Assembly (NCBI GenBank): GCA_963808125.1
Contig: CAWEEP010000059.1
Span: 39,380-103,379 of the forward strand
Direction: 5' to 3'
Length of the DNA: 64,000 nucleotides
DNA from: Candidatus Dormiibacterota bacterium
Lineage (GTDB): Bacteria; Chloroflexota; Dormibacteria; Aeolococcales; Aeolococcaceae
Shown: positions 8,711 through 37,084 of the stretch, piece after piece
Layout of the letters: each line of letters begins with the position of its first letter
Position numbering within the stretch: position 1 is the first letter of the stretch
Notes under the pieces: generated by a model
Databases searched by the model: none
Told to the model about the DNA's origin: nothing
What the model saw: the letters and a program-made list of their open reading frames with translations, nothing else
Program-made: the position numbers and the translations under genes

Positions 8711-9040
8711 TCAGCGCTTGGCGCGGCGGCCACCGCTCTTGACCGACGCCGACAGCGTGGTGGAGGGGGCGAACCGGACCACCTTGCGAGCCGCCACCTT
8801 CACCGCCTCGCCGGTGCGCGGGTTGCGGCCCATGCGAGCGGCGCGCTGCTGGATCTTGAAGTTGCCGAAGCCGTGGATGCGAACCTCGTCTCCCTTCTGC
8901 AGGGCTGACGCGATGGTGGCGAAGAACCAGCGCACGTCATCCCGCGCACGCGTCATGGCGTAGGTTCCACCGCCCTCGTCGTTCTCGACCTTCGCCTTCC
9001 ACAACTCTGCCAGGGAATCGCGAGTGATGACTTCGGACAT
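8711..9040 (-). CDS. hup: HU / IHF-family nucleoid-associated DNA-binding protein
   Basis: ATG rc at 9038-9040. ...VRIHGFGNFKIQQRAARMGRNPRTGEAVKVAARKVVRFAPS matches the HU arm region (GFG.F…R.aR.GRNP.TGE.i.i.a…v.F.…). Confidence 0.85.
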   Translation of the reverse strand: MSEVITRDSLAELWKAKVENDEGGGTYAMTRARDDVRWFFATIASALQKGDEVRIHGFGNFKIQQRAARMGRNPRTGEAVKVAARKVVRFAPSTTLSASVKSGGRRAKR

Positions 9041-9176
9041 GCGCACTTCTCCATCGGCGTTGGCGGTTGCAGCGGCCCGAATTGTATGCGGCGGCAACGG
9101 CTTTTGCCAACTCCCAGTTCGGGGCGCCGGGATTCGTGAGGCACGCAGCAAACCTCAGCGAGCATGCTAGGGTGCA

Positions 9177-14984: not shown

Positions 14985-16655
14985 ATGGCAGCGCCAAATC
15001 TTGCCACGCGGAGCGCGCCTCTAAGTATCCCAGCGCGGACAGGGATCGGCCGTCTGGCGCTGGGTCTGCGAGCTCCGGCGCTGTTCCTGGCGCTCGCGCT
15101 GGTGGTGCTGCGGCCCGGGCTGTTCACTGGCCACGACACGATCGTGGGTAACGCCGGGGATCCCTCGCTGTCCATCTGGGCGTTGCAGTGGCTGCCATTC
15201 GCCCTGGGCCACCACCTGAATCCGCTGATGACCGACTACCTCCACTACCCGACTGGCGCCAACCTGATGTGGAACGGTTCCATCCTCTTCCCCGCCCTGG
15301 TGCTGGCGCCAGTCACCCTCATCTTCGGCCCCATCGTCTCCTACAACGTCTTGGCCCTCCTCAGCGTATGGCTCTCCGGCTGGTGCGCCTACCTCGGAGT
15401 GCGCCGCTTCTCACGCCGCTGGGTCTCCGCGCTGATCGGAGGTCTCCTCTACGAGCTGAGCCCCTTCATGGCCAGCCAGATCACCGGCCACGCCCAGATG
15501 TTCGTGGCCATCTTTCCCCCACTGCTGCTGCTCTTCGCCAACGAGATCCTGGTGCGCCAGCGGCGACGGCCGGCGCTCATGGGGGCGCTGCTGGGCTTCG
15601 CCGCCGCCGCCCAGCTCCTCACCGGTACGGAGATGCTGGCCATCTGCGCTGTCATGGCCATCCCGCCCCTGGTCACGCTCGCCGTCCTCCGCCGCGACCA
15701 GGTGCGGGAGAAGCTCCCCTACGCGCTCCGGGCGGCCGGTTTCGCCGCCCTCACCTTCGCCGTGCTGGCGGCGTATCCGCTGTACCTGGTGCTCCTCGGA
15801 CCGCAGCACGTTTCCGGAGCTCTCCAGGGTTTCGTCTACATGGCGCGGCCGACCTCCTTCCTGATCCCGTCGAACGTCCAGCTGATCAGCGGGCCCACCA
15901 CCGTCCTCGACTCCAGCGTGTATATCGGCATCCCAATGGCGATCCTGGCCGTGGCCGTCGGCGTCCGGCTGCGACACAGCCTCGTGGTGGCGGTGGCGTC
16001 GGTGACGCTGGCCTGTGCCGTGGTGCTGTCTCTAGGCGGCCATCTGACCATCCACGGCGGCCCCACGCCGATACCGCTCCCGTGGGACATCGCCCAGCAC
16101 CTGCCCGTGCTCGACAACGTGCTGCCGGTCCGCCTCATGGTGGCGGGCTACCTGGCCTTGTCGGTGATCGTCGCCGTCTTCATCGACGCCGTGCTCGAGG
16201 CTGTGCCGCGGCGGCAGCTCGCCGGGCTGGCGGCGGTCGCCGTGGCGCTGGTGTTCCTCGCCCCCCCGCTGCCGTTCTTCGCCGGACAGCTCATGGTCCC
16301 CGCCTTCTTCACGGACGGCTCGTCCCAGCGGCTCCCGCAGACAGGCTCAGTGCTGATCACCCCATACGGAGTCGCCTATGGGGACTACCCCCCGGAGCTC
16401 TGGCAGGCGGTGTCGAACATGGCCTTCAAGACCCAGCTGGGGATCGTCTACACCCCAGGGCCGGGCGGCCATGAGGTCGGCCCCGAGCTGGATCCGCTCG
16501 GCCGGGAACTGAGCGCCGTGGGAGACGCCGGCAGGCCCGTGCCGGCCACCCTTGCTGTCTCGGTCCGCCAGACGTACCTCGGCGACCTGCGGGCCCACGA
16601 CGTGACCACGGTGATCGTCGGCCCCTCGCCGGGGAGGCTCAGGTCGTGCAGCTGA
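14985..16655 (+). CDS. Polytopic integral membrane protein, GT-C-like topology (putative lipid-linked-sugar glycosyltransferase)
   Basis: 556 aa with at least 11 hydrophobic segments. The first extracytoplasmic loop after TM1 is rich in conserved small, acidic and aromatic residues (…GHDTIVGNAGDPSLSIWALQWLPF…), as in GT-C enzymes. Function inferred from topology and genomic context only. Confidence 0.6.
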   Translation: MAAPNLATRSAPLSIPARTGIGRLALGLRAPALFLALALVVLRPGLFTGHDTIVGNAGDPSLSIWALQWLPFALGHHLNPLMTDYLHYPTGANLMWNGSILFPALVLAPVTLIFGPIVSYNVLALLSVWLSGWCAYLGVRRFSRRWVSALIGGLLYELSPFMASQITGHAQMFVAIFPPLLLLFANEILVRQRRRPALMGALLGFAAAAQLLTGTEMLAICAVMAIPPLVTLAVLRRDQVREKLPYALRAAGFAALTFAVLAAYPLYLVLLGPQHVSGALQGFVYMARPTSFLIPSNVQLISGPTTVLDSSVYIGIPMAILAVAVGVRLRHSLVVAVASVTLACAVVLSLGGHLTIHGGPTPIPLPWDIAQHLPVLDNVLPVRLMVAGYLALSVIVAVFIDAVLEAVPRRQLAGLAAVAVALVFLAPPLPFFAGQLMVPAFFTDGSSQRLPQTGSVLITPYGVAYGDYPPELWQAVSNMAFKTQLGIVYTPGPGGHEVGPELDPLGRELSAVGDAGRPVPATLAVSVRQTYLGDLRAHDVTTVIVGPSPGRLRSCS

Positions 16656-16814: not shown

Positions 16815-17441
16815 ATGAGCAGCTTCAGCCAGACGTACCTCGAGGAGGTCGGGCGCATCGCCGCCGCCATCGACAGCGACCAGGTGGAGCGACTGGCCGC
16901 CGGCCTGGCCCAGGTCAGAGAGCGGTCTGGCCGGCTCTTCGTCCTCGGCGTCGGCGGCTCGGCGGGCCACGCCGGCCACGCCGTCAACGATTTCCGGAAG
17001 CTGTGCGGTATCGAGGCGTACGCTCCCACCGACAACGTGTCCGAACTGACCGCACGCATCAATGACGACGGCTGGGACACCTCCTATAGTGCGTGGCTCG
17101 CCGGTTCCCATCTCCGGGCCCATGACGCGATCCTGGTCTTCTCGGTGGGGGGCGGCGACCGTGAGCGGGGCATCTCCGCCAACATCGTCAAAGCGCTGGA
17201 GGCAGCCCGGGCGGCGGGCTGCTTCATCGGCGGCATCGTGGGCAGGGACGGGGGGTACACCGCCCGCGTCGGCGACGCCGTCGTCATCATCCCGCCCCTC
17301 GTGGGTGAGCGGGTCACCGCCCACACCGAGGGTCTCTGCGCCGTCATCTGGCACCTCCTGGTCTCCCACCCCCTGCTGCAGCGGAACCCGACCAAGTGGG
17401 AATCGGCGGTGGGAGGCCCATCGTGGCCAGCCGTTTCCTGA
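16815..17441 (+). CDS. gmhA: SIS-domain D-sedoheptulose 7-phosphate isomerase
   Basis: ATG at 16815 (MSSFSQTYLEEV…). …GRLFVLGVGGSAGHAGHAVNDFRKL… and …DAILVFSVGGG… are GmhA-type SIS motifs. Confidence 0.8.
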   Translation: MSSFSQTYLEEVGRIAAAIDSDQVERLAAGLAQVRERSGRLFVLGVGGSAGHAGHAVNDFRKLCGIEAYAPTDNVSELTARINDDGWDTSYSAWLAGSHLRAHDAILVFSVGGGDRERGISANIVKALEAARAAGCFIGGIVGRDGGYTARVGDAVVIIPPLVGERVTAHTEGLCAVIWHLLVSHPLLQRNPTKWESAVGGPSWPAVS

Positions 17442-18411
17442 TCGTCGGAGGCGCCGGCTTCATCGGCAGTCATCTGACCGATCGCCTCCTCGGTGAGCCG
17501 GGCACCGAGCGCGTCACCCTGTACGACAACTTCTCCTCCGGCCGCGAGTGGCACTACGCGGCTTGGCGCGACGATCCGCGGCTGGACGTCATACGCGCCG
17601 ATGTCCACGAGCAGGAGCGTCTGAACGCCACCGCGGCGGGGCACGAGGTGGTGATTCACCTGGCGTCGAACCCCGACATCGCCCGGGCCGTGCGCGAGCC
17701 GTCGATCGACTTCCACGAGGGCACCGAGCTGACGCACGCCGTGGTCGAGGCGGCGCGGATCTCGGGTGCAACCACCCTCCTCTATCCCTCGGGAAGCGGG
17801 GTGTACGGAGATCTGGGAGAACTGGAGGTCGAGGAGGATCACGGTCCCCTGGTCCCGGTCTCCACGTATGGGGCGTCCAAGATGGCCGGAGAGGCCCTGA
17901 TCGCCGCCTACTGCCACATGTTCGGGCTGGTCGGACGGGCCTTCCGCTTCGGCAACGTCGTCGGAGCCAGGCAGACGCACGGCGTCGGTCTCGACTTCCT
18001 CCGCCGCCTGATCGAGGATCCGACGCGGCTGCGGATCCTCGGTGACGGCAAGCAGAGCAAGTCGTACATCCACGTGAGCGACGTGGTGGAGGCGGTCATG
18101 ACCGCCCTTGCGCGCGAGACACGGCCATTCCAGGTCTACAACGTCGCCACCGGCGACTACACGACGGTCCGCGAGATCGCCGACATGGCCGTCGAGGTTC
18201 TCGGCCTGCGGCCGGGATCTGTGACCTACGAATTCACCGGTGGGGATCGGGGCTGGAAGGGGGACGTGCCGGTCGTGCCGAACTCCGGACGGACCGCATC
18301 CGAGCGCTGGGGTGGAGCAACCGGCTGCGATCCTCCGAAGCCCTGCGGGCGTCCCTCGAGGAGATGCGCGCCACGCTTCCGGGGGGGGCGCCCGAAGGCA
18401 CCGGGGCGTGA
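17423..18411 (+). CDS. NAD-dependent epimerase/dehydratase (extended SDR); frame broken once near nt 18276-18284
   Basis: GTG at 17423. LIVGGAGFIGSHL (Rossmann), the YGASK catalytic motif, …HVSDVVEA…. The true C-terminus …ELRTDRIRALGWSNRLRSSEALRASLEEMRATLPGGAPEGTGA* lies in the +1 frame and ends at the TGA at 18409-18411, so a single missing G in ccgg is inferred. Paralogue of the 30439-31455 gene (…GDSPLIDLDTTKIRSLGWEPTLTIREAI…). Confidence 0.8.
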
Positions 18412-18968
18412 ACTCGGTTCCCGCCGTCTTCCTCGACCGCGACGGCGTGCTGAACGCGGCCGTCGTCGTCGACGGTCGCCCGCACCCCCCCCGAAGCGCC
18501 GCCGAGATGATGCTTCTGCCGGGCGTCGAGGACGCTTGCGCCCGGCTGCATGGTGCCGGTTTCGTGCTGGTCTGTGTGACCAACCAGCCCGATATCGCCC
18601 GGGGCGTGACCACCGCCGCCAGGGTGGCGGAGATCAACGACGACATCCAGCGCCGCCTCGGCCTCGATGCCGTCGCGGTCTGCCCCCATGACGACGCCGA
18701 CGGCTGTGCCTGCCGCAAACCCAAGCCGGGGCTGATCAGGGAAGCCGCCGCACGCCTCGGCCTGGATCTCACCCGAAGCGTGGTGGTCGGCGACCGCTGG
18801 CGCGACGTCGAGGCGGGTAGACAGGCGGGCTGCCGGACCGTCCTCATCGACCGCGCGTACGATGAGCCGGCGGCGATCGCCGACGCCGTTGCCGCCTCTC
18901 TGGCCGAGGCGGTCCCGTGGATCATCAGCCTCTCCCGCAGGGGGACCTCCCCGAGAGCGGAGGCATGA
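18408..18968 (+). CDS. gmhB: D-glycero-D-manno-heptose 1,7-bisphosphate phosphatase (HAD family)
   Basis: GTG at 18408 overlapping the epimerase stop (GTGA). AVFLDRDGVLN… (DxDx motif), …VCVTNQPDIARG…, …CPHDDADGCACRKPKPGL… (the Zn-binding Cx..C of GmhB), …VVGDRWRDVEAG…. Confidence 0.8.
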   Translation: MNSVPAVFLDRDGVLNAAVVVDGRPHPPRSAAEMMLLPGVEDACARLHGAGFVLVCVTNQPDIARGVTTAARVAEINDDIQRRLGLDAVAVCPHDDADGCACRKPKPGLIREAAARLGLDLTRSVVVGDRWRDVEAGRQAGCRTVLIDRAYDEPAAIADAVAASLAEAVPWIISLSRRGTSPRAEA

Positions 18969-18969
18969 C

Positions 18970-19696
18970 ATGGTGGACAGGGTGGATCTGAGCACATTGC
19001 GCGTCGAGGTGTTCGCCGACGGGGCGGATCGCGCCGGGATCGAGGGTCTGGCACGGAATCCCTGGATCAAGGGGTTCACCACCAACCCGACGCTGATGCG
19101 CGCTTCCGGCGTCGCCGACTACGAGGCGTTCGCACGGGACGTCCTCACCGTGGTCGGTGGCCGCCCAATCTCGTTCGAGGTCTTCGCCGACGATTTCGAC
19201 GAGATGATCCGCCAGGGGCGGCGGATCGCCGGCTGGGGTGAGGCGGTGTTCGTGAAGATTCCCGTCACCGACACCCAGGGCCGCCCCACCTCCGCCGTGC
19301 TCAGATCCCTGAGCTCGGAGGGTATCCAGCTCAACGTCACGGCGATGACCACCCCGGCACAGGTCCGCCGCGTCGTCGATTGCCTGGCGCCGGGAAGCCG
19401 TCACTTCGTGTCCCTCTTCGCCGGCAGGGTCGCGGACACGGGAAGGGACCCGCTGCCGCTGGTGCGGGAGTGCCTGGAGATCCTCGGTCCGCGTCCCGAG
19501 ATCAGGTTGATCTGGGCCAGTCCCCGAGAGATCCTCAACGTGATCCAGGCCCACGAGGTGGGCTGCCACGTCATCACGGTGACTTCACGACCTCCTCGCG
19601 AAGCTGCCGCTCCTGGGCAAGGATCTCGACGAGTACTCCCTGGAGACGGTGCGCATGTTCCATCGCGACGCGGTCACCGCCGGCTTCCACCTGTGA
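18970..19696 (+). CDS. tal: Transaldolase, short TalC/fructose-6-phosphate-aldolase-type; frame broken once near nt 19585-19590
   Basis: ATG at 18970 (MVDRVDLSTLRVEVFADGADRAGIEGLARNPWIKGFTTNPTLM…). Schiff-base Lys region …AVFVKIPVT…. The true C-terminus DLLAKLPLLGKDLDEYSLETVRMFHRDAVTAGFHL* lies in another frame ending at 19694-19696, so a 1-nt insertion in acttcacga is inferred. Confidence 0.8.
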
Positions 19697-19738
19697 GACC
19701 CGGGCGGCGCGACGCTCGACGCTGATGGCGACGGACTG

Positions 19739-20460
19739 ATGCCGCTGCCCGTGGTCATCCTCGCCGGCGGCCTCGCGACGCGGATGTACCCGCTCACTGA
19801 GACCGTACCCAAGGCGTTGCTACCGGTGAACGGGCGCCCCTTCGCGGACATCCAGCTGCGCTGGCTCAGTTTCTCGGGGTGCGCGACGTCGTGTACAGCA
19901 TCGCCTACTTGGGTGAGGCGATCCAAGAGCATGTCGGAGACGGTCGGCAATTCGGCCTTCGGGTCCGCTATGTGGCGGACGGCGAGCGGTACCTCGGTAC
20001 CGCCGGCGCGCTGCGCGCCGTCATCGACGCGCAGGCGGTGCCCAAAGACTTCGGGGTCGTCAACGGCGACTCCTTTCTCACCCTCGATCTCGCCGCGGTC
20101 GAACGTGCCTTCAGGGCGAGCGGCTCGCCGGCGCTGATGACAGTGATGCGCAACCGCGACCGCTGGGACAGCAGCAACGTGGTCTTCGACAAGGGGCGCG
20201 TCGTCGTCTACGACAAAAGCCGGCCCGGTGCGTCGCGGGACCGGATGGAGTGGATCGACTACGGTTTCTCGGTCCTGGCCCGCCACGCCATCACCGACCG
20301 CGTCGCGGCGGGCCAGGTCGCCGACCTCTCCGATGTGATGCGCGAACTGAGCCTCGCCGGACAGCTGGCTGGCTTCGAGGTTGCCGACCGCTTCTACGAG
20401 ATCGGCTCACCACAAGGATTAGCTGACCTCGAGCGCCACCTGGGACCGCTTGCCCCATAG
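19739..20460 (+). CDS. hddC: Sugar-1-phosphate nucleotidyltransferase, D-glycero-alpha-D-manno-heptose-1-phosphate guanylyltransferase-like; frame broken near nt 19866-19876
   Basis: MPLPVVILAGGLATRMYPLTETVPKALLPVNGRPFADIQLRWL on one frame, then …VRDVVYSIAYLGEAIQEHVGDG…YLGTAGAL…VVNGDSF… on the next. A single-base loss in agtttctc is inferred. Context is gmhA/gmhB/hddA. Confidence 0.75.
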
Positions 20461-20476
20461 TGCCGCCGGAGGCGGC

Positions 20477-22152: not shown

Positions 22153-22276
22153 AGGTTCAGGCTCTCCGGGCAGCGGTCGCCGGGCGCACGGGGAATGCCA
22201 CACTCGTCCCGGCGCTCCGGATCGGGCGCGAGTTCTACGCGATCGGACCGGATTTCGGGGCCGGGCGCGGTCCGTC

Positions 22277-23383
22277 TCACTGCCGCGGCTGCGGCCTCTT
22301 CACCGGCCGCAGCCTGTGATAGACACGGCTCGGCGCGCGCGACCACCGCCACATCCGGCTGCCCTCGATGGCGTCGAGACGACGCTGGGCGTCGATGAGA
22401 CGGCGGTTGAAGTCGGCCACCTCAGCGTTCAGCTCGACGATCCGTGCCTCGGCGCGGGCGGCGCGGGCTTGGCGGATGACGACCTCCGGCTCCAGCTCTC
22501 CGAAGAGGGAGTCCCGCTGCCGCGCCCGGCTGATCTTGACCACCATCTCCGCATCGCGGGCATCGAATGAGGCCGCCACCAGACCGTCCCCACTGAAGGA
22601 CTCGCCCACGGTGTGTTCGGCGATCACGTGCCCGCCGGCGGCTTCGACCGCCGCGAGGACGTTCTGATGGGTCATCGGATCCCCCGAGATCGAGTGATGA
22701 TGGGTCGATATCAGAGCGAATCGAATGTCACCGCGAGCGACGAGCGGTCGCAGCTGCTCGATGAGCGTTGTCTCCGCCCCCTGGATGTCGGCGAGGAGCA
22801 GGCTGACCCGCTCCATACCGCCGAGTGCCATCAGAGCCCGGACATCGAACTGGGGGACGTCGTGCAGCTCGCCGTCGCTCTCCGCCAGGAACCTCATCGT
22901 CCCGCCCGGATGGGGACCGACGGCGCCGTGCACGAAGGTCGCCGTCTCGCGGTTGTAGCCGAAATTCCGGCGGCCGACCTCGAGGAACCGCTCGTCCGGC
23001 TCCAGGTCGACGACGATGCTCGCGGGGAGCGCGTGCCGGAACCAGAGACTGTAGAAGGCCCACCAGCTGCCGAGCTCGATCATCGTGGGATGCTCGTCGG
23101 TGGCGAGCAGACGCTCCACCATGCGGGCGAAGACCAGTTCCTCCTGCGGCTCGTGATGGCCGCGAAGGCAGCGGATGATCTCCGTCGTCCAGCGGCCGCA
23201 GTACGCGTCCCTCTCGACCACGACGCCGTTGTGCATGACCTGAACGGCGACACCGTCCACTTCGCGGAAGCCACCGGCATCGGGGACCTTGGGCAGGTCG
23301 TCGCAGTCGTGACAGGAGACGGTCAGCGCAATGCGCCTGGCGTGGTCGGGAAAGTCGCTCAGATGCGGGCTACGCCGCTCCAT
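22277..23383 (-). CDS. SAM-dependent methyltransferase, FkbM-like, with C-terminal coiled-coil
   Basis: …MIELGSWWAFYSLWF… and …FLLADIQGAETTLI… resemble the FkbM-family MTase core. The C-terminal roughly 70 aa (…RAARAEARIVELNAEVADFNRRLIDAQRRLDAIEGS…) is predicted coiled coil. The family call is from motif memory only. Confidence 0.7.
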   Translation of the reverse strand: MERRSPHLSDFPDHARRIALTVSCHDCDDLPKVPDAGGFREVDGVAVQVMHNGVVVERDAYCGRWTTEIIRCLRGHHEPQEELVFARMVERLLATDEHPTMIELGSWWAFYSLWFRHALPASIVVDLEPDERFLEVGRRNFGYNRETATFVHGAVGPHPGGTMRFLAESDGELHDVPQFDVRALMALGGMERVSLLLADIQGAETTLIEQLRPLVARGDIRFALISTHHHSISGDPMTHQNVLAAVEAAGGHVIAEHTVGESFSGDGLVAASFDARDAEMVVKISRARQRDSLFGELEPEVVIRQARAARAEARIVELNAEVADFNRRLIDAQRRLDAIEGSRMWRWSRAPSRVYHRLRPVKRPQPRQ

Positions 23384-27369: not shown

Positions 27370-30300
27370 ATGGTATCGTACGCGCGGTTTTCGGGAGTAA
27401 CGGCCCGTTCGCCGCGCTCATGGAGGACCCTCGACACCTTGGGTGGCCCTGAACTGGGAGACGCCGCGGCGGTTGGCGGCGCGCCCCCGCGTCACGAGGC
27501 CGTCGATCCGCGGGCGCCAGCGCCGCCCGAGGCGTCCACTTCCGCGCTGAGAGCCGCCCGTGTGGCTGTTGTCGGCGCCGCAGCGCTGAGCTGGGTGGTG
27601 TGGGGGCGGGTGGGCACCCAGCTCTCGGTGAGGACGGACATCGTCGGCGGCACCACGTTCTACGACTTCGACATCTACCAGTACCTGGACTATCTCTACA
27701 TCGTCCTGCTCCTGCTCCCTGCTCTGGCCGCCGCCCTGTTCCTGGCACTGAGCCGCTGGGGGCCTCTGGCCTCCCGGCGATCACGACCGTCGTGGCCCCC
27801 ACTGCTTTCACGCCGCGAGGGAGCGTCTCCCGACCGCCGGGCGGCTCCGGAACCGGCGGCAACGGCATCGATCGAGGCGGCGGGCGGAGACGTCCCCAAT
27901 CGGCGGCGGCTGTCGCCCCTGGAAATGGCCGGTGTCGCAGCCCGCCTGCTCCTGCCGGCCCTGGTGATCGCGGCGGAGATCGAGGTTGGTGTCTCGACGC
28001 GAGGCCAGATTCTCACCTTCGGCAAGATGGGTGTCGGCGTGGTGATCATCTATATCGTTCTCGTACTCACCGTGGCCCTGCTCTGCGAGAAGTGGGGACA
28101 TGCTGGGGTCGCCGCCCTTTCCGCCGCCAACGCGGTCATCGCCACTGCGGTCGTCCCCTTGCTGCTTCTCGTCTCGGCATCAACATCGGTGTTCGTCGCC
28201 TCCGACCACGACGTCGTCCGTTACCCGTGGCTCCCCATTTGGGTGGCGGTGCCTGTCGCCGCCGCCATCGTGGTGGGGGTTGGCCTAGGGCTGGCCCGCG
28301 GCGGTTGGAAGGCAGCCCACAGTATCGAGCGCTGGGTGCTCATCGCCGCGGTGATGCCGGTGGCGCTGTTCCTCGCGACCGCCATGCTTCAGGGCGCTCA
28401 GGGCGCGATCAACGCCTTCGACGACTCGCAATCGATGGTGGGCGCACAACTCGTCTTCGGCCACGGTCTCCTCCCTTGGAAGAGCGTGTTCCTGCTGCAC
28501 GGCTTCCTCGCCGACGGGTTCGACGGAGCGCTCGGCATCTGGGCCTTCGGCGCCACGCGGTGGGCATCGAATTCCGGTCTCTCGTTCTTCGTCACACCGG
28601 TGACGGTGATCTGCCTCTGCGGGTTCATCGCCTACTTCTGCCGCAGGAACTGGGCACTCGTGGTGGGCGGAGCCCTTGTCCTCCTCCTCGGCCTGCTCTC
28701 GAATCCGTACTCGCCCCGTTACGTGCTCGTCCCGGTGGTGCTGATCCTCTTCGACATGGTGCTGCGCCGGCCCAGTTGGCGCCGCTGCTGGCTGTTCATG
28801 AGTGCAGTCGTGTTCACCGCGATCGTCACGCCAGAGGCGACCATCCTCGTCGTCGGGGTGCTCGTCACTCTTGCCGGCGCGGAGCTGGTTCACCACCGCT
28901 GGGGCACGCCGGTCCTCGACGGCTTTCCCGCCACGGTGCGTTCCATCGTCGCCGGCTCGGTCCTGACGGCGCTGTGGGTCGCCTTTCTTCTCGCCAACGG
29001 CGCCCTCTCAGGCTTCGTCAACTACTACACGAGCACCGTGGCAGGGCATGAACTGTGGGGAGCCCTGTCGATTGCCTGGCCGCTGAACGGAGACCTCAAT
29101 TCGACGGTCTGGTTCGCACTGCCCATCGCCCTTTTCCTGCTCACCGTCGCAAAGGTGGTGCGGAAGCTCCACCGCCGTTCGCCGTGGCGAAGTGCGGAGT
29201 GGACACTGGTCGCGTCGTCCACCTTCGTCCCGCTCTTCTACCAGGTCATCATCGACCGCTTCGACCCACCACACATCGACGAGGTCGCCGCTGCGCTCAT
29301 CCCCTTCGTGTTCCTCTGGGGAATCGAGGGCGTGGCGGCGGCCGATCGCCTCCTCGCCCGGCTCGGCACCCGGGCGTCCGGCTGGATCTCGCGGCATGGC
29401 GCACGACGGCGCGATACCCGTGCCTGGAGTGGATTCGGCGGGCAGTGGAGGGCCGCCACCCCTGCGGCGCTGGCGGTGATCGTCGGGGTCGTCCTCTGGT
29501 CCCCCAACCGCTGGCCTATCTCAAGACCATCCCCGGCCACTTCCACCCCACGGTCCCCGTCGAGGCTCCGACGGCGCTGCCTCTGGGCTACACCCTCCCA
29601 GGGTCGATCGACACGACACAGCTCGAGGATCTCTCGACCGTGCTCGACCTCTACGCCGGTCCCTCCGGCCCAGTCGTTGACTTCGCCGAGGAGATGGGCG
29701 TGACGTACTATCTCCTCGGTCGGGTTCCCGGAGCACCCTTCGTGGTCATCAGTTCGGCCCAGACTGCCGCCGCCCAGCAGGAGGATATAGCCGCCCTGCG
29801 CCAGAGTCGCCCGCCGGTCGCGATCTTCAATGACGCGACGTTTGGACTTACCGACTACGACGGCATCTGGAGTATGGAGCGGGACTACCTCGTGAGCCAG
29901 TATCTCCTCGACAACTACCGTCCCATCCTTGACGTGGAGGGCCAGATCGTCATGCTGCGGGACGACCTGGTGAACACGGCACCGCCGCCCCCGACCCTCC
30001 AGATCGCGCCGGTCACCACGGGGCTGTACTTCGCCGGTGAGCCCTCATGCGCCTGGGGCGACGTGCCCGACTTTTTCGATCCCCCAACGGCGACCGAGAT
30101 CAGCGATGGGGTGGCGGTGCCGACGGCTGCCGATGTCCCCCCCGCCACGATGGCGGCGTCCACGTCGCTGCTGAGCCTCACCGTGCCCGGGGCGCTGACC
30201 TCGTATCAATGGCTCGAGTTCTCCGCCCCTCCGGTTTCGGCCGGGCGACCATCCAAGTCACGGATCAGACGCTGGGGGCCAAGGCATCCCACGTCATCAG

Positions 30301-30442
30301 TTTCACGACACTGCCGCGCGTGGGTTCGACCGTCTTCCTGAGAGTCTGCAGCTGCATCCAGTGGCACGGGTACGCCGCCGGCTCGCTTCATCTCCTCTTG
30401 CAGGGGGCGCCCACCGACATGACCGTGCGGGCGCTGCCATGA
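27370..30442 (+). CDS. Very large polytopic membrane protein (about 1020 aa) with C-terminal extracytoplasmic domain, GT-C-like glycosyltransferase candidate; two frame breaks (about nt 29501-29509 and 30226-30234)
   Basis: ATG at 27370. At least 15 hydrophobic helices. The first loop carries …TFYDFDIYQYLDYLY… (acidic DxD-like motif as in GT-C). The C-terminal roughly 300 aa is soluble (…VDFAEEMGVTYYLLGRVPGAPFVVISSAQ…). Frame 1 to frame 2 joins at a C5 run (tcccccaacc). Frame 2 to frame 3 joins at cccctccgg. The final C-terminus …ATIQVTDQTLGAKASHVISFTTLPRVGSTVFLRVCSCIQWHGYAAG…RALP* overlaps the next gene start (ATGA). Confidence 0.6.
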
Positions 30443-31455
30443 CCGCGGCATCCGCTCTCCAGCTCCCCACCGTCCGACGGGCATGTATCACCGGAGGTGC
30501 GGGGTTCATCGGCAGCAACCTGGCGGACGCGTTGCACGCGCGTGGCGCCGAGATCGTGGTCGTCGACAACTTCCGGACAGGACGACCCGACTTCCTGGCG
30601 TCGCTCGTAGGCTCGCCACGGTTCACGCTCATCGAAGGGGATGTGCTCGACCCCAAGGTCATGGCCCGGAGCCTTGAGGGGTGCGACTGGGTCTTTCATC
30701 TCCAAGCCAATGCCGACGTGCGCGACGGGCTCACGCATCCCACCGTGGATCTCCGACTCAACACCATCGCCACCTCGCATGTCCTCGAGGCGGCGCGCGT
30801 CGCCGGCGTGACGCGCGTCGTCTTCTCATCGACGGGCTCCGTGTATGGCGAGCCGCTCCTCGTGCCGACACCGGAGGACGCTCCTTTCCCCCTCCAAACC
30901 TCTCTGTACGGCGCCTCCAAGCTCGCCGGAGAGGGGTTGGTGGCCGCGTACTGCGAGGGATTCGGTTTCACCGGGGTGATCCTGCGTTTCGTCTCAATTC
31001 TTGGCGAGCGGTACACTCACGGCCATGTTCGCGACTTCCACCGCGCGCTGAGGCGAGACCCGTCGCGGCTGCGCGTGCTCGGCGACGGTTTGCAGCGGAA
31101 ATCCTACCTCTATGTGCAGGACTGCGTCTCGGCCATGCTCCTGGCCGTGGAGCGTCACGCCCGTATCGCTGGCGCCCACGTGTACAACCTGGGGCTGCGG
31201 GAGACAGTGACAGTCGACGAGTTGGTCGGCATCATCACCGAATGGCTCGGCGTGACCCCGGCCATCGAGCACACCGGCGGACCCCGCGGATGGATAGGCG
31301 ACAGCCCGCTGATCGATCTCGACACTACCAAGATCCGCTCTCTCGGCTGGGAGCCGACGCTGACGATCCGAGAAGCGATCACCCGGACACTCGATTGGCT
31401 CGACCAGACGGATCGGGCGGCGAAGCCCGCGGCGAGGCGGCGCGCGAATGTGTAG
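30439..31455 (+). CDS. NAD-dependent epimerase/dehydratase (extended SDR), paralogue of 17423-18411
   Basis: CITGGAGFIGSNLADAL, the YGASK catalytic motif, …RFVSILGER…, …IDLDTTKIRSLGWEPTLTIREAITRTLDWL…. Intact. Confidence 0.85.
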   Translation: MTAASALQLPTVRRACITGGAGFIGSNLADALHARGAEIVVVDNFRTGRPDFLASLVGSPRFTLIEGDVLDPKVMARSLEGCDWVFHLQANADVRDGLTHPTVDLRLNTIATSHVLEAARVAGVTRVVFSSTGSVYGEPLLVPTPEDAPFPLQTSLYGASKLAGEGLVAAYCEGFGFTGVILRFVSILGERYTHGHVRDFHRALRRDPSRLRVLGDGLQRKSYLYVQDCVSAMLLAVERHARIAGAHVYNLGLRETVTVDELVGIITEWLGVTPAIEHTGGPRGWIGDSPLIDLDTTKIRSLGWEPTLTIREAITRTLDWLDQTDRAAKPAARRRANV

Positions 31456-31479: not shown

Positions 31480-32466
31480 GTGGGCGTGATCTTCGCCAGA
31501 GCGCCGCTCAGGATCTCACTAGGCGGCGGCGGCACCGACCTGCCGTCGTATTACCGCGACCACGAAGGCTTTCTCATCGCCGGGGCGATCGACAAGTACG
31601 TCTACCTGCTCGTGCACACGGTCTTCCAGCGCCGCTATCGGATGAAGTACTCGCTGCTCGAGGAGGTGGACGATGTCCGTGAGATTCGCCACCCCATCCT
31701 GCGCGAGACCCTGAGCCGGCATTGGCACGGCAATCCGTTGGAGATCGCCTCGGTGGCCGATGTGCCGGCGGGCACAGGAATGGGCTCCTCGGGCGCCTTT
31801 ACCGTGTGCCTTCTCAAGGCCCTGGCGCAGGCACGGTCGACGTCCATCACGCCTTTGGCCCTGGCCGAGGCAGCCGCGGACATCGAGATGAACGTCCTCA
31901 GAGAGCCCGTCGGCAAGCAGGACCCGGATGTCGCCGCCTTCGGCGGCATCTGCGCCTACACCTTCCATCGCGACGGCAGCGTGGACGTCGAGCCGCTCGA
32001 GCTGTCCGAGCGCACCCTGCGCCGGCTGCGCGACCAACTGCTCCTCTTCTACACGGGCGAGACGCGGTCGGCGGCCGCCATCCTCTCCGACCAGGATCGC
32101 CGCTCGCTCGCCCGAGACCAGTCGATGGTTGACAACCTTCATCACATCAAGCAGATCGGCCTGGAGAGCCGCGAGCTCCTGGTGAGCGGCGACCTGGAGG
32201 GGTACGCCGCCCTGATGCACACCCACTGGGAGTACAAGCGACAGCGAACGACCGGGATCAGCAGCGAGCGGATCGATCAGTTGTACGCATTGGCACGCGA
32301 GAGTGGCGCGCTGGGGGGAAAGCTCGTCGGCGCGGGCGGTGGTGGATTCCTTCTTGTCTTCACCCCGCAGCCGGAGAGCACCCGCGAGGCGATGACGTCG
32401 GCCGGCGCAATCGAGCTCCCCTTCACATTCGAGTTCTCCGGCGCGACGGCGAGCGAGTTCCGATGA
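31480..32466 (+). CDS. hddA: GHMP kinase, D-glycero-alpha-D-manno-heptose-7-phosphate kinase-like
   Basis: APLRISLGGGGTDLPSYY (GHMP motif I), …PAGTGMGSSGAFTVCLL… (motif II), …GAGGGGFLLVF… (motif III). Gene order and paralogy match GDP-heptose clusters. Confidence 0.85.
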   Translation: MGVIFARAPLRISLGGGGTDLPSYYRDHEGFLIAGAIDKYVYLLVHTVFQRRYRMKYSLLEEVDDVREIRHPILRETLSRHWHGNPLEIASVADVPAGTGMGSSGAFTVCLLKALAQARSTSITPLALAEAAADIEMNVLREPVGKQDPDVAAFGGICAYTFHRDGSVDVEPLELSERTLRRLRDQLLLFYTGETRSAAAILSDQDRRSLARDQSMVDNLHHIKQIGLESRELLVSGDLEGYAALMHTHWEYKRQRTTGISSERIDQLYALARESGALGGKLVGAGGGGFLLVFTPQPESTREAMTSAGAIELPFTFEFSGATASEFR

Positions 32467-33455
32467 GCGGCCACGCGCTGCGGGTGGGCATCGCCGGCTG
32501 TGGGCTCGATCGGCGCGAAGCGGGCGAAGGTCCTCGGTACGGATCGTCTCATCGGCTGCTATGACATCGACCCCGACGCCGCCGAACGCCTGGGGGCGCC
32601 CACGGCGCCGCCGCGTGCCCCTCTCTGGGGAACTGATCTCCCTCCACCCCGATGTCGTCATCGTCGCGGCGATCCACAGCGAACTCTCACGCATCGCCTG
32701 CGAGGCGCTGGCCGGCGGCTGCCACGTCCTGGTGGAGAAGCCCGCCGGTGCCAGCCTCCACGACGTCGAAGCCATACGCGAGGCCGCGGCGGCGTCCGGG
32801 AAACTGGTGAAGGTCGGCTTCAACCACCGGTTCCACCCGGGCATCGAGCGTGCCGTGAGCGAGGCCATGTCCGGGTCGCATGGGCCGGTGATGTTCATGC
32901 GGGCTCGCTACGGGCACGGCGGCCGCATCGGATACGAGCGGGAGTGGCGGGCCGATCCGGCCCGGTCGGCGGTGGCGAGATCATCGATCAGGGTATGCAC
33001 CTCCTCGATCTCTCCTACTGGCTCTTCGGCGCGCTGCCGCTGACCGGCTCGCTTCTGCGCACGCATTTCTGGCAGGCGCCCGTCGATGACAACGCCGTGC
33101 TCATCCTGGGCGAGCGGGGCGGCGTCGGTGTCCGCTCCCCGTGGTCATTGATCCACGTGAGCTGGACCGAGTGGAAGAACCTCTTCTCGCTGGAGATCTA
33201 CTGCGAACGGGCCAAGCTGGCGGTCGACGGGCTGACCCGGTCATATGGGGCCCAGGAGCTGCGCATCTACCGGATGAGGCCGGAGCTTGGGCCCCCCGAC
33301 GTCGAGCATCTCCGCTATGCCGAGCGCGACGTCTCCTGGGAGCGCGAGTGGGAACACTTCGCCGGCGCCATCCGGCTCGGTGACGGCCGGCCACTCCTCG
33401 GTGATCTCGACTGGCGGCGTACGCGTGGCAGTGCGTGGAGGAGGCCGTCCGGTGA
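32463..33455 (+). CDS. Gfo/Idh/MocA-family NAD(P)-dependent oxidoreductase; at least four frame breaks
   Basis: ATG at 32463 overlapping the hddA stop. MSGHALRVGIAGCG|SIGAKRAKVLGTDRLIGCYDIDPDAAERLG|…ELISLHPDVVIVAAIHSE…EKPAGASLHDVEAI…VKVGFNHRFHPG…EREWRADPA|GGGEIIDQGMHLLDLSYWLFG… across frames. The breaks fall in ggg/ggggg/ccc runs at about 32503, 32594, 32963 and 33415. The stop overlaps the SDR GTG start. Confidence 0.65.
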
Positions 33456-34320
33456 GCCGGCGCATCGTCGTCACCGGCGCCGGTGGCGGCATCGGTGCCG
33501 CCACCGCCCGCCACCTCGCCTCCCTTGGCGACCGGCTGCTGCTGGTCGGCCGCCGGGAGGCGGCGCTCGAGGAGGTCAGGGCGTCACTTCCCGGTGGCCC
33601 CCACATGTCCCTGGCCCTCGACGTCTGCAACGAGAGGGCGTGGACCTTCGCCGCGAATTGGCTGGCGCCAGGGGACGCTGGATGGGCTGGTCACCGCTGC
33701 CGGTGTGCTGGGGCCAATCGGTCCCCCCGGCTCCTGGGACGTCGACGCGTTCCGGCAGACCATCGAGATCAACCTCGTCGGCACTCTCCTCTCCGTCCTC
33801 AGCCTGCTGGCGCCACTTCGGGCCGGCCACGGTGCAGTGGTCGCTTTCTCGGGAGGGGGTGCCACATCCCCCTTGCCGCGCTTCGACGCCTACGCCGCCT
33901 CTAAGGCGGCGGTGGTGCGACTGGTCAACCTCGCGGTGGAACTCGCGCCGGACGGAGTGCGGATCAACTGCGTGGCACCGGGCTTCGTGGCCACGGCCAT
34001 CCACCAGGCGACCATCGACGCGGGGCCGCAACTCGCCGGCGACGCCTACTACGAGCGCACCCGTCGCGCCCTCGACGTCGGCGGCGACTCCGCGGACACG
34101 GCCGCCGAACTGACCGCCTTCCTCCTCTCGCACGATGCCGAGGGGATCACCGGACGGCTGCTCAGACGCCCGGTGGGACCCGTGGACCGATCCGGTCTTT
34201 CGCGAGCGCCTGCGCAGCGACCCCGACCTGGCCCGGCTCCGCCACATCGACGACCAGGCTTTCACGGCGCGTCGGCGGCCTCGCCGCGCAGCCAGATCCG
34301 GATCAGCCCCTTGTTCTTGA
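33452..34320 (+). CDS. Short-chain dehydrogenase/reductase (SDR); two frame breaks; 3' end abuts the IS element
   Basis: GTG at 33452. RIVVTGAGGGIGAATARHLA (TGxxxGxG), …AFSGGGATSPLPRFDAYAASKAAVVRL… (YxxxK), …INCVAPGFVAT…. Breaks at about 33668 and 34165. The C-terminal 20 codons may be IS-derived. Confidence 0.6.
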
Positions 34321-35565
34321 TCTGTCCGAACACCGGCTCCACCACCTGCTGGCGCAACCGGTAGCGCTCTCGCCCCCGCTTGGTCATCAGCCTGCGCTTC
34401 ATCCGCTCCCGGCGCGTCAGCCCCGCCGGAATCCGGCCCCGCGGCGACGGAGGGCACCGGTAGCTCCGCGGCATCCGCCCGGTGGCCACGTAGGCGGTGA
34501 CGCCGAGCTCATCCAGCGCCTCGAGATTGGCCTCCGAGCAGTAGCCGGCGTCCGCCGAGAGCTCCCTCGGCAGCCCACCCAGGTTGGCCTCGATCTCGGC
34601 CACCACCTCCAGCAGTTGCGGGCAGTCGGCAGCGCTGTTGGTCAGCCTGGCCGCCACGATCACCTGCGACGAGGCGTCCACCGCCGCCTGCCCGTTGTAG
34701 CCCTGGATGAAGGCCCCCTCGCCGCCCTTCATGATCCGCGACTCCGGGTCGGTGAAGTTCTGCTGCGCCTTGGCCTCCGGCTCCGTCTTCCCCTCGGCCT
34801 GGGCCCGCTCCTTCAGGTCCTTGATCGCCGTGCGGATCGCCTCTCGCCGCTTCGCCGCCGTGCGCAGGTTCTCCGGCAGCTCGTCGCCGTCGTTGTCCGC
34901 CCCGTACTTGGCGTCCTCCTCGGCGTCGGTCTGGTCGCACTCCCGAAACCACTTGTCCAGCTCGGCGGTGATCCGGTCCACCTCCGGCTGCATCCGGTCG
35001 TAGCTCATGGCCGCATGCTTGCTGGCGTTCGCCTTCAGCTTGGTGCCGTCCACCGCCACGTGGTCCAGCTTCACCAAGCCCTCCTCACGGCAGAGCAGCA
35101 GCACCTGCTGGAACAGCCCTCCCAGCGCCGCCAGGTGGCGCAGCCGGAAGCTGTTGAGCGTTCGGAAGTCAGGCCGGTTGCCCGCCGCCAGCATCATGCA
35201 GCCGACGTCCCGAGTGGCCAGCCTCGCCAGCTTCCGGCAGCTGCGGGTGCCCACCGCGTAGGCGTACAGCCACAGCTTGGTCATCGTCCGAGGGTGGTAC
35301 GGCGGATAACCGCGCAGCTCCTCCTCGTACACCGCCTCGATCTCGGACAGGTCAAGCGCGTCGACGATGTCGCTGATGAAGTGGGCCATGTCCCCCTCGG
35401 GGACCCACTCCTGCACCGACGAAGGCAACAGCAGCATCTGGTTGGGAGCGTACGGGCGGAACGTCTCCGGCATCCCCAGATTGACTCACATCCGCCCCGC
35501 CACCCGCCAGCGGTTACCGGGACGGGCTGCTAGGGGGGACTCCGGGTCCAGCGTACGACACGGCT
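34200..35565 (-). mobile_element. Insertion sequence (IS1182 family), about 1.3-1.4 kb, boundaries approximate
   Basis: Single transposase ORF flanked by the SDR gene (3' side) and the GT2 fusion gene stop at 35570. No clean terminal inverted repeats could be verified by eye. Confidence 0.5.
34262..35473 (-). CDS. IS1182-family (IS5-superfamily) transposase, DUF772 N-domain plus DDE domain
   Basis: MPETFRPYAPNQMLLLPSSVQEWVPEGDMAHFISDIVDALDLS… (DUF772-type N-terminus). …VAVDGTKLKANAS… and …YCSEANLEAL…AYVATG… give the DDE triad context. C-terminal …VEPVFGQIKNKGLIRIWLRG is characteristic of this family but ends about 20 aa short of typical members. Confidence 0.75.
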   Translation of the reverse strand: MPETFRPYAPNQMLLLPSSVQEWVPEGDMAHFISDIVDALDLSEIEAVYEEELRGYPPYHPRTMTKLWLYAYAVGTRSCRKLARLATRDVGCMMLAAGNRPDFRTLNSFRLRHLAALGGLFQQVLLLCREEGLVKLDHVAVDGTKLKANASKHAAMSYDRMQPEVDRITAELDKWFRECDQTDAEEDAKYGADNDGDELPENLRTAAKRREAIRTAIKDLKERAQAEGKTEPEAKAQQNFTDPESRIMKGGEGAFIQGYNGQAAVDASSQVIVAARLTNSAADCPQLLEVVAEIEANLGGLPRELSADAGYCSEANLEALDELGVTAYVATGRMPRSYRCPPSPRGRIPAGLTRRERMKRRLMTKRGRERYRLRQQVVEPVFGQIKNKGLIRIWLRGEAADAP

Positions 35566-35569: not shown

Positions 35570-37084
35570 TCAGCTCTCCCGGTACAGCCTGACGAAGCGG
35601 AACTTGAAGCAGGCTCGGACCCAGGTCAGCGGGTCCCGAAAGAAGGCGATCTTCTTGCCCTGACCGAAGGAGCGTGACCGGTACCCGACGGGGATCTCGC
35701 GCGGGTGATAGCCGGCGCGCACCAGCTTCCCGGTCAGTTCCCAGTCGAAGTCGAAGCGATTGGACTCGAAGGTCAACCCGTACAGGCAGTCGCGCCGGAT
35801 CACCTTGTACATCGTGAAAGGATCCCGCAGTCGCTGCCCGTACACGACGTTGAAGAGGGTGAGGAACACCTCATGACCGAGGTTCATGAAGTGGCTCCTC
35901 ATATCGCGCTGGCCGAAGTCCCGCAGCCCCCATGAGCCGTCCGGACTGGTCCGCATGCCGAGGACGAAGCCGACCTCGCCCGAGCGCAGCGGCTCCAGCA
36001 GGACCTCATAGTCGTCGATGTCGTACTCCATGTCGGCATCCTGGATCAGGACGAAATCACCGCGAGCCGCCTCGAGCCCGGCGCGGACGGCGTGGCCCTT
36101 GCCCCGCGGGCGCTCCTCCAGGATGACCCGGACGCGCGGGTGGTCCGAGTGCTGAAGCACCTGGGTCCGAGTGCCATCGGTTGAGTTGCTCTCCACCACG
36201 ATGACGTCGATCTCCATGCCGGGGATCGTCTTGGCGAGCACCAGGCTCATGGTCTTCTCGAAAGTGGAGGCCTCGTTGTATACCGCCATGATCACGGAGA
36301 GCCGTTGGAGGCGCTCGACCGGCGGCGGCAGCGCGCTGCGGCGCGCGCTGACGACGAGCGCGCCATCACAGCGGCGGAGCCGGGGCTCCTCGAAGCCTTC
36401 CCGGAACAGCAGCCCCTGAAGGGTCTCACCGGGAAACGGAGGGGCAGTGTCCGGCCCCGACCCCATCCGGGATCGGTGACGGCCGACGCCCGACGCCCGG
36501 TCGTGGCGTAAATGGAGGACCAACCGCCCACCCGGCCGGAGCCGGCGATACGCCCACGCCAGCAGATCGGCGGGCTCGACGGCCGTTTCGAGGACGCCGT
36601 CGAGGACGCAGACGGAGAGCCCCAGATGGTCTGCGGGGACCCCCAGGCTGCGATCGGTGTCGATCGCGGCGAGTTCAACCCTTTCGAGGGCCGCCGACAC
36701 CTGGAGCGCCGGGGGCAGCCCATCCGACACCCAGAGTGCGCCGCCGTCACCACCACGGGCACCGGCGGAGAGGGGCTCCGCGATGGCGGCGAGAAGGGCG
36801 CTCTGAACGTGGGCCGACGCTCCACGCCCGGCGGGCGCAGGGGCGCGCGCACCCGCAGAGGAGAAGTTCACGGCTCGGGCGATGCTATCCCACCCGGTGG
36901 AGGACCCGCCTCCCCGGCCGATCGGCGCTGCGCGCCGGGATCCGATGCGCCTCTTCCTGCCCGGGTGAGTGTTGTGTACGATTGCTCCGCTTTGGGAAGA
37001 GGGCGCGCACCCCGCGAGGGGACGGACCCGGGTCGGCTCGCCGGTTCGGCGTGCGACGAGGGCTACCCGGATCTGATCGGCCAT
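35570..37084 (-). CDS. Fusion protein: N-terminal methyltransferase-like domain (degenerate SAM motif I) plus C-terminal family-2 glycosyltransferase
   Basis: C-terminal domain …LSVIMAVYNEASTFEKT…VIVVESNSTDGT…FVLIQDADMEYD… (GT2 DxD). N-terminal region aligns with the 26404 MTase core (…ALLAAIAEPLSAGAR—ALWVSDG…RVELAAIDTD…SVCVLDGVLETAVEPADLLAWAYRRLRPGGRLVL…) but has lost the GxGxG. Start uncertain (ATG rc 37084, possible later starts). The upstream 259 codons of the 763-aa ORF are antisense to a + strand MTase and are rejected. Confidence 0.6.
   Translation of the reverse strand: MADQIRVALVARRTGEPTRVRPLAGCAPSSQSGAIVHNTHPGRKRRIGSRRAAPIGRGGGSSTGWDSIARAVNFSSAGARAPAPAGRGASAHVQSALLAAIAEPLSAGARGGDGGALWVSDGLPPALQVSAALERVELAAIDTDRSLGVPADHLGLSVCVLDGVLETAVEPADLLAWAYRRLRPGGRLVLHLRHDRASGVGRHRSRMGSGPDTAPPFPGETLQGLLFREGFEEPRLRRCDGALVVSARRSALPPPVERLQRLSVIMAVYNEASTFEKTMSLVLAKTIPGMEIDVIVVESNSTDGTRTQVLQHSDHPRVRVILEERPRGKGHAVRAGLEAARGDFVLIQDADMEYDIDDYEVLLEPLRSGEVGFVLGMRTSPDGSWGLRDFGQRDMRSHFMNLGHEVFLTLFNVVYGQRLRDPFTMYKVIRRDCLYGLTFESNRFDFDWELTGKLVRAGYHPREIPVGYRSRSFGQGKKIAFFRDPLTWVRACFKFRFVRLYRES

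Follow-up and report, generated by a model that had tools for sequence, protein, structure and literature searches.

Amongst the proven drug targets in actinobacteria are extracytoplasmic GT-C enzymes, e.g., Emb in the case of ethambutol. Members of this glycosyltransferase class use isoprenoid-linked donors, and GT-CA enzymes share a conserved seven-helix module, in which the first outer loop comprises two helices, the first of them carrying the catalytic Asp or Glu (PMC13503287). Three-component systems made up of a GT2 enzyme, a flippase and a GT-C enzyme are established, and GT-C enzymes with carbohydrate-binding modules (CBMs) are known (PMC11127046). GDP-heptose is synthesized by GmhA, HddA, GmhB and HddC (PMC10680097), and the GDP-octose of the lincomycin pathway by the transaldolase LmbR, the isomerase LmbN, the kinase LmbP, the phosphatase LmbK and the nucleotidyltransferase LmbO (PMC12945683). 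Here, we characterize a gene at positions 27370-30442 (plus strand) of a 64,000-nucleotide stretch of DNA from a Candidatus Dormiibacterota bacterium; this whole stretch, with a G+C content of 66-73%, is referred to as the window. In our judgement, the gene probably encodes an intact membrane glycosyltransferase of the GT-C class, which would act outside the cytoplasm with a polyprenyl-phosphate-linked heptose or octose as donor. We infer the donor, the acceptor, the catalytic residues and the register of the GT-C core from sequence comparisons, predicted structures and gene context.

Predicted topology and fold of the protein

A single gene is spread over three frames of the plus strand, from ATG 27370 to TGA 30440-30442. 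Open reading frames (ORFs) extend to 29703 in frame 1, from 29055 to 30341 in frame 3 and from 30047 to 30442 in frame 2, and third-position G+C content peaks first in frame 1 (from 27.5 to approximately 29.45-29.5 kb), then in frame 3 (29.5-30.2 kb) and finally in frame 2 (30.23 kb to the stop). Each of the two joins corresponds to a deficit of one base in a run of C, i.e., CCCCC at 29501-29505 and CCCC at 30226-30229, and the addition of one C to each run yielded one protein of 1,024 amino acids (aa). A preliminary description of this DNA had placed a gene for a protein of roughly 1,020 aa at these coordinates, with two frame joins in C-runs, and was correct on both counts. ATG 27370 is the putative start codon, with TTG near 27436 and GTG at 27562 as alternatives, and residues 1-37 are modelled as disordered. 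Residue numbers refer to the repaired window protein unless P0001 is stated, except in profile alignments, where they are positions of the family; P0001 is the product of the intact gene of a related locus, L002, and its numbering plus 55 gives that of the window. L001 denotes a contig of the public ENA metagenome assembly ERZ25039529.

27370..29505, plus strand: segment 1, frame 1, residues 1-712, with the disordered N-terminal tail, the six-helix extension and the putative core TM7-TM17 (TM, transmembrane helix) (ORF, third-position G+C, AlphaFold, topology, hhalign register)
27634..27672, plus strand: loop after TM1, T-D-I-V-G-G-T-T-F-Y-D-F-D, residues 89-101, predicted outside
28381..28557, plus strand: TM7-TM8 outer loop, residues 338-396, with two short helices, F-D-D at 350-352, P-W-K (P-W-R-D in the family) and invariant H377, G378 and D382 (alignments A2, A3 and A5; secondary structure)
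29501..29505, plus strand: run of five C, one C short, first join from frame 1 to frame 3 (six C in L001; intact homologues read W-S-P-Q-P/S-L)
29506..30229, plus strand: segment 2, frame 3, alpha/beta part of the C-domain and start of the beta-sandwich (third-position G+C, AlphaFold, ratio of nonsynonymous to synonymous substitution rates (dN/dS) of 0.13)
30226..30229, plus strand: run of four C, one C short, second join from frame 3 to frame 2 (five C in L001)
30230..30442, plus strand: segment 3, frame 2, end of the beta-sandwich, C-terminal motif and TGA stop (reconstruction, homologues, alignment)

AlphaFold models were obtained for P0001 (pLDDT 85.3, pTM 0.86) and for the frame-1 segment of the window (pLDDT 87.2, pTM 0.88). 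Model helices and hydropathy together indicated approximately 17 membrane helices, in agreement with the at least 15 that had been described as preceding a large soluble C-terminal domain. Lysine and arginine residues numbered 36 amongst the 202 residues predicted to be inside vs 9 amongst the 206 predicted to be outside; the N-terminus was therefore assigned to the inside, and the TM1-TM2 loop and the C-domain to the outside. The extracytoplasmic position previously suggested for the C-domain was thus upheld, as was that of the loop after TM1, for which a cytoplasmic prediction would have been the adverse outcome.

The C-domain (residues 713-1024, 312 aa) is acidic, with 30 D/E vs 12 K/R. It was modelled as an alpha/beta lobe and a beta-sandwich, contains two near-invariant cysteines, and weakly matched CBMs and GH12 jelly-rolls. 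The N-terminal extension of six helices spans approximately residues 54-312, and the GT-C-like core, TM7-TM17, approximately residues 313-712. As part of the explanation given above, and with the same moderate confidence, we read the models as a cytoplasmic tail, a six-helix family-specific extension, an 11-helix GT-C-like core and a 312-aa outer domain with a CBM-like sandwich.

When the full-length model was compared with the PDB using Foldseek, the first 18 matches were all GT-C enzymes, headed by STT3 (E = 5.8e-4) and AftA (E = 1.2e-3) and followed by EmbC, ArnT, EmbB, PglB and ALG12, with target-normalised TM-scores of 0.3-0.44. With the membrane domain of the window protein, 15 of the first 20 matches had the GT-C fold, at TM-scores of 0.17-0.38 (mostly 0.25-0.38), and E-values were weaker, at 0.1-1. 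GT-C-fold proteins dominated this list, mostly at TM-scores of 0.25-0.40, and included STT3, AftA, PglB, EmbA/B, Pmt4, ALG6 and the GT-C-like PIG-U. The five unrelated matches amongst the first 20 had TM-scores of at most 0.17, as did MATE, ABC, GPCR and MprF chains. The assignment to the GT-C class is based on this remote fold similarity (TM-score at most 0.44) and on gene context.

An RND/MMPL transporter had been named in the preliminary description as the outcome that would speak against a GT-C enzyme. This candidate was rejected, as no RND/MMPL sequence family match was obtained and no such chain was present amongst the fold matches listed for the full-length and membrane-domain searches, which returned nearly only GT-C enzymes.

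Family membership and distribution

The repaired protein gave no Pfam or NCBIfam match at E-values up to 10, 48 diverse relatives gave no Pfam match at the same threshold, and PDB sequence searches with profiles of 30 and 82 members returned noise only. A word-indexed search retrieved 31 relatives, which throughout lack a name or are annotated as “hypothetical” and bear no Pfam domain. An exhaustive profile search of 1.84 billion proteins, for which the best 150 matches were listed, yielded 4,575 representative clusters (50% identity) at E ≤ 1e-3, with 574 at E ≤ 1e-30. Taking one genome per species, we located 70 family loci, the closest of which are in Acidimicrobiales and others in Micromonosporaceae, Nocardioides, a Mycobacterium, Solirubrobacterales, Gaiellales and Dormibacterota. 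Some genomes carry two or three family paralogues, about 30% identical, in one cluster, i.e., L005 (4707-7601 and 10001-13282) as well as L023, L024 and L066, which share one contig. The family is large, has not been described before and occurs in Actinomycetota and Dormibacterota; no report on it was found in the literature.

Neither the window protein, its relatives nor the two PDB profiles gave a sequence match to family models or solved chains of Emb, AftA or AftD. The preliminary description, which had proposed a GT-C enzyme on the scale of Emb or AftD, was thus right in kind, given the remote fold similarity and the gene context, while its Emb/AftD analogy lacked sequence-level support: we found no sequence-level membership in Emb, AftD, STT3/PglB, ArnT or PMT (PF02366 and PF13231 for the last two).

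Weak profile alignments restricted to the core were co-linear with two GT-C families. Residues 259-659 of the family aligned by hhalign with residues 16-429 of the DUF6311/GT87-like family (score 34.3, compared with 22.3 for the reversed template and at most 28.2 for 12 block shuffles), and residues 320-657 with residues 58-365 of Escherichia coli ArnT (26.2 vs 16.5 reversed), the ArnT profile being shallow (effective number of sequences 1.6, with all homologues at least 76% identical to the query). The scores of the first 257 residues were no better than those of nulls.

Conserved residues and the candidate catalytic loop

The preliminary description had singled out an acidic DFD motif in the loop after TM1. 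The string T-F-Y-D-F-D-I-Y-Q-Y-L-D-Y is indeed present, with DFD at 27664-27672, and its loop is predicted to be outside. Amongst 82 relatives, however, the first column of DFD is N in 40, D in 28 and A in 7, the second is F or Y, and the third is N in 48 and D in 29, so that relatives usually read N-F-N. We therefore rejected DFD as a catalytic motif or conserved signature, since its acid is not retained across these relatives. In the same loop, D90 occupies the Asp position of the family motif TDIVG(Y)P, at which D is found in 63 of the 82. This loop is short and holds no invariant acid.

Within the TM7-TM8 loop, F295, [D/H/E]296, [D/E]297, W315, D317, H322, G323 and D327 (P0001 numbering) are invariant or near-invariant, with F-[D/H/E]-[D/E] preceding the first of the two helices. 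The same holds for R395, P433-E434, H505, R575, D577 and H580 in later outer loops, and for D716, N719, D776, R783, C839, C941 and W944 in the C-domain (all P0001). The near-invariant residues of segment 2 are D771, N774, D831, R838 and C894 in window numbering. With the exception of E265 (P0001), all conserved polar residues of the membrane domain lie in outer loops. Weak alignments connect the TM7-TM8 loop with loop 1 of the DUF6311/GT87-like family and of ArnT, both GT-C families. We propose from these alignments that the GT-C core starts at TM7, with TM1-TM6 as a family-specific extension, and that the TM7-TM8 loop is the candidate catalytic loop and the putative equivalent of GT-C loop 1.

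The family motif near the C-terminus is V-G-S-C-x-Q-W-H-G-Y, for which the window has V-C-S-C. At this site (30340-30345, residue 994) G is present in 70 of 82 relatives and L001 reads E-V-G-S-C; window and L001 differ here by paired compensating indels, and the local sequence is unreliable.

Gene neighbourhood and the predicted sugar pathway

The window is syntenic with L002-L004. Around the target gene we found sugar-pathway genes and a GT2 of the type that makes lipid-linked sugar donors.

14985..16655, plus strand: polytopic 556-aa protein, probable DUF6311/GT87-like GT-C enzyme (Pfam marks of homologues; about 11 hydrophobic spans)
16815..17405, plus strand: SIS isomerase, GmhA-like, first gene of the sugar-pathway run 16815..20457
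17396..18400, plus strand: epimerase, same run
18408..18962, plus strand: HAD-IIIA phosphatase, GmhB-like, same run
19003..19693, plus strand: transaldolase, frameshifted, same run
19754..20457, plus strand: nucleotidyltransferase, frameshifted, same run
30439..31455, plus strand: NAD-dependent sugar epimerase/dehydratase (PF01370, E = 1e-47; the same 338-aa gene follows P0001 in L002-L004)
31480..32466, plus strand: GHMP kinase, with D-glycero-D-manno-heptose 7-phosphate kinase HddA as best NCBIfam match, below the curated cut-off
35573..36895, minus strand: polyprenyl-phosphate-sugar synthase-type GT2, a candidate for the synthesis of the lipid-linked donor (NCBIfam and PDB sequence matches)

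In the sequence ATGA (30439-30442), the target gene ends and the downstream epimerase begins, an overlap that suggests translational coupling of the two genes. The mechanical ORF list places the epimerase start 78 bases too early, at GTG 30361. Also present around the target gene are a divergent methyltransferase, GFO and SDR oxidoreductases and further methyltransferases, and dTDP-rhamnose genes accompany the sugar-pathway run upstream. The window GT2 had AglJ, dolichyl-phosphate hexose transferase and ArnC as its best NCBIfam matches, and matched 6yv7, PfDPMS (5mlz), ArnC and GtrB (5ekp) in the PDB by sequence.

Similar gene sets recur in the family, and a DPMS/AglJ-like GT2 is found at most of its loci. 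Within 10 kb of the family gene, in the 49 loci of at least 20 kb, homologues were found of the GHMP kinase (40 loci), the nucleotidyltransferase (40), the SIS isomerase (39), the transaldolase (39) and the HAD phosphatase (33). In the cultured Rugosimonospora, Dactylosporangium and Mycobacterium sp. 4858, the sugar genes form one cassette, the first gene of which encodes a GT2 with four C-terminal helices. This four-helix GT2 is present at approximately 35 of the 70 family loci, e.g., at 2150-3484 of L006, with homologues in L021, L025, L028 and about 30 other loci. It is best matched by AglJ, dolichyl-phosphate hexose transferase, PpgS, the Pyrococcus DPMS (PfDPMS) and ArnC. Its conservation between Actinomycetota and Dormibacterota, at 60-79% identity, far exceeds that of the adjoining GT-C-like protein (28-35%).

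Because these five enzyme classes fit GDP-heptose synthesis and, with the transaldolase, also the GDP-octose route of lincomycin, the sugar of the cluster may, by analogy, be a C7 or C8 sugar, i.e., a heptose or an octose. Ordinary heptose synthesis needs no dedicated transaldolase, and the presence of one hints at an octose-type logic. In the literature, we found neither a lipid-linked heptose used with a GT-C enzyme nor any C7/C8 lipid-linked donor.

The 556-aa protein at 14985-16655 had been put forward as a second GT-C candidate, which its homologues support. The protein itself has no direct Pfam match; it is approximately 70% identical to Dormibacteria proteins that bear precomputed PF19830 (DUF6311) or PF09594 marks, the latter of which corresponds to GT87, a GT-C family. 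No homologue of the 556-aa protein lies within 10 kb of the family gene at any of the other 70 family loci, and the gene may have been acquired horizontally by the Acidimicrobiales-like lineage of the window.

Further features were noted at the edges of the cluster. The otherwise collinear locus L002 lacks an insertion of 1,252 bp (34281-35532) that separates the SDR and GT2 genes of the window and contains a DDE transposase ORF (34262-35473, minus strand). Large proteins are encoded at 38141-40489 and 42724-44937, on the flanks of the cluster: one is of the He_PIG + Peptidase_A4 type and one is Rv2525c-like and glycoside-hydrolase-like, and they could be substrates or remodelers of the glycan. 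Upstream, 3149-11212 holds cell-wall genes, namely a Mur ligase, a D-Ala-D-Ala carboxypeptidase and two FemAB-family genes; their presence fits an envelope-directed locus.

Proposed function and alternatives

In the pathway that we propose, the cytoplasmic transaldolase, SIS isomerase, GHMP kinase, HAD phosphatase and nucleotidyltransferase would build a nucleotide-activated heptose or, by the logic of the lincomycin route, octose, which the epimerases, oxidoreductases and methyltransferases of the cluster would tailor. The DPMS/AglJ/ArnC-like GT2 would load this sugar onto polyprenyl phosphate. The resulting lipid-linked sugar would be carried across the membrane by a flippase, and on the outer side the 27370 protein would transfer the sugar to a cell-envelope glycan or possibly to protein. 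Its active site would be formed by the TM7-TM8 loop (FDD, H377, D382) together with R450, E489, H560 and R630/D632/H635, with the C-domain holding the acceptor.

A number of observations weigh against this proposal. The fold similarity is remote, with TM-scores of at most 0.44, and the membrane domain alone gave no match at E 1e-3. When full-length profiles were aligned by hhalign, neither the DUF6311/GT87-like family (9.8% probability) nor the shallow E. coli ArnT profile (2.5%) gave a significant match, and the core-only alignments exceeded their nulls only modestly. The four-helix GT2 is absent from the window's own clade, which has instead a soluble AglJ-like GT2 preceded by approximately 190 residues matching no family. 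No GtrA, SMR or MATE flippase was detected: small ORFs near the gene have no or one hydrophobic span, and the window genes scanned contained no such Pfam domain. Finally, all sugar-pathway enzymes are below the NCBIfam equivalog cut-offs, the transaldolase of the related locus L006 excepted, and the identity of the sugar is for this reason a guess.

One alternative is an oligosaccharyltransferase- or ligase-like GT-C enzyme, by which a glycan assembled beforehand would be passed en bloc from polyprenyl-(di)phosphate to a protein or wall polymer, as by STT3, PglB and AglB, rather than single sugars being added. STT3 is the best full-length fold match and PglB also scores; moreover, inclusion of the C-domain improves E-values approximately 400-fold, which suggests that the outer domain also superposes on the outer domains of STT3, PglB or AftA. 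The adjacent GT2 resembles AglJ, the starter of the haloarchaeal lipid-linked N-glycan, and the several large GT2s at some loci could build an oligomer. The C-domain also contains a near-invariant [W/Y]-D-G-[I/V], with a near-invariant R four residues further on. In this motif, however, G directly follows D, and the WWDxG motif of STT3/PglB/AglB is absent, as are a match to the STT3 domain (PF02516) and any PDB sequence match. There is no polymer exporter or flippase in the flanks, and the occurrence of paralogues in pairs or triplets per cluster is more reminiscent of Emb/Aft-type enzymes, which transfer single sugars with linkage specificity. We regard en bloc transfer as rather unlikely.

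We consider it distinctly unlikely that the protein is not a glycosyltransferase at all, i.e., that it is a transporter, flippase or scaffold for the cluster glycan that shares only the helix packing of GT-C enzymes. The weak fold scores, the fact that no acid of the TM1-TM2 loop is invariant and the need for a flippase in a cluster where none was identified would fit such a role. On the other hand, no RND/MMPL, MATE, ABC or MFS match was obtained by sequence, and such transporter folds reached TM-scores of at most 0.17 and probabilities of at most 0.18. The invariant His, Asp, Glu and Arg residues lie in outer loops, as for an outward-facing active site, and a large conserved outer domain with a CBM-like sandwich is typical of GT-C enzymes.

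Integrity of the gene

Over 11.5 kb, L001 and the window share 98.99% identity, and L001 carries CCCCCC and CCCCC at the two join sites; its 614-aa product, P0002, reads W-S-P-Q-P-L-A-Y and E-F-S-A-P-S-G-F-G, as does the repaired protein across both joins. L001 has in turn lost one base of its own in this gene, with CCC reduced to CC at window position 28473. In these 11.5 kb, 56 indels distinguish the two assemblies, of which many lie in homopolymers, and other window genes are also frameshifted, i.e., the transaldolase (19003-19693), the nucleotidyltransferase (19754-20457) and the SDR gene (33452-34266, two shifts). Indels relative to L001 are dense at 19300-22700. The window seems to have been assembled from long reads without polishing. 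Amongst related contigs, many bear the label of MFD metagenome-assembled genomes, which derive from deep Nanopore sequencing of Danish soils (PMC12313526).

Compared with the intact L002 gene (83% identical; its product P0001 is 77% identical), dN/dS was 0.23 overall and 0.13 downstream of the first join, and full-length homologues of the repaired protein were found at E = 0. The 27370 gene is real and under purifying selection. Given that the 99%-identical L001 reads through both joins, that other window genes are frameshifted and that dN/dS is 0.23, the joins are long-read homopolymer or assembly errors rather than decay, and the gene is almost certainly intact, as the preliminary description had supposed. 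A true pseudogene in the source organism, killed by the two -1 frameshifts that in the window as given truncate the frame-1 ORF at 29703, is highly improbable and was ruled against by the full-length C-runs of L001 (its own frameshift at 28473 notwithstanding), the 56 indels, the frameshifted transaldolase, nucleotidyltransferase and SDR genes, the Nanopore origin of related contigs (PMC12313526) and the dN/dS of 0.13 after the first join.

Comparison with known systems

We raise, tentatively, the possibility that this is the first GT-C enzyme using a polyprenyl-phosphate heptose or octose, that it founds a CAZy-type family of its own, with an unusual layout of six extension helices, 11 core helices and an outer domain of two lobes, and that it reflects a widespread, unrecognised envelope decoration in Actinomycetota and Dormibacterota. 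If so, a new kind of lipid-linked sugar donor (C7/C8) and a new envelope glycan would exist in abundant soil members of these phyla, and the decoration would extend to cultured Micromonosporaceae, Nocardioides and a Mycobacterium. The family comprises thousands of sequence clusters that have no Pfam, NCBIfam or structural annotation, yet it lies within a gene cassette that is amongst the best conserved in this analysis. It offers candidate catalytic residues that can be tested, and cultured strains, e.g., Dactylosporangium roseum NRRL B-16295 and Rugosimonospora africana NBRC 104875, carry the cassette.

The DUF6311/GT87-like family shows a weak co-linear alignment, from its TM1 to its end, with residues 259-659 of the present family, in which W315, H322 and E434 (P0001 numbering) pair with its W69, H76 and E216. 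The probability of this alignment is only 14%, however, and that family has neither the N-terminal extension nor a large C-domain.

The locus also resembles the three-component systems GtrA/GtrB/Gtr*, ArnC/ArnEF/ArnT and the GT136 pentofuranose system (PMC11127046), in that a DPMS/GtrB/ArnC-like GT2 lies beside a GT-C-like enzyme and sugar-nucleotide genes. It differs from them in that the flanks contain no GtrA, SMR or MATE flippase, that the GT-C-like protein is twice the usual size and that the predicted sugar is C7 or C8. The five enzyme classes of the GDP-heptose (PMC10680097) and lincomycin GDP-octose (PMC12945683) pathways cluster with the family at approximately 80% of loci. Those pathways, however, feed cytoplasmic glycosyltransferases or an antibiotic rather than a GT-C enzyme, and the enzymes of the family loci fall below equivalog cut-offs.

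The closest parallels in architecture are the mycobacterial EmbA/B/C and AftA/AftD, and STT3/PglB, which are likewise polytopic and of similar scale, with an outward active side and an outer C-domain that includes a CBM-like sandwich. Emb and Aft proteins also occur as sets of paralogues in one locus, and Emb, AftA, STT3 and PglB are amongst the top fold matches. The present family differs from all of these in its lack of sequence or profile similarity, in its approximately 17 helices, six of which form an extension before the apparent core, and in its motifs (FDD...PWRD...HGxxxD, PE, PGH and LxRxDxxH). Furthermore, it is tied to a heptose/octose-type pathway, whereas Emb, Aft and STT3 are tied to decaprenyl-phosphate arabinose or to diphosphate-linked oligosaccharide.

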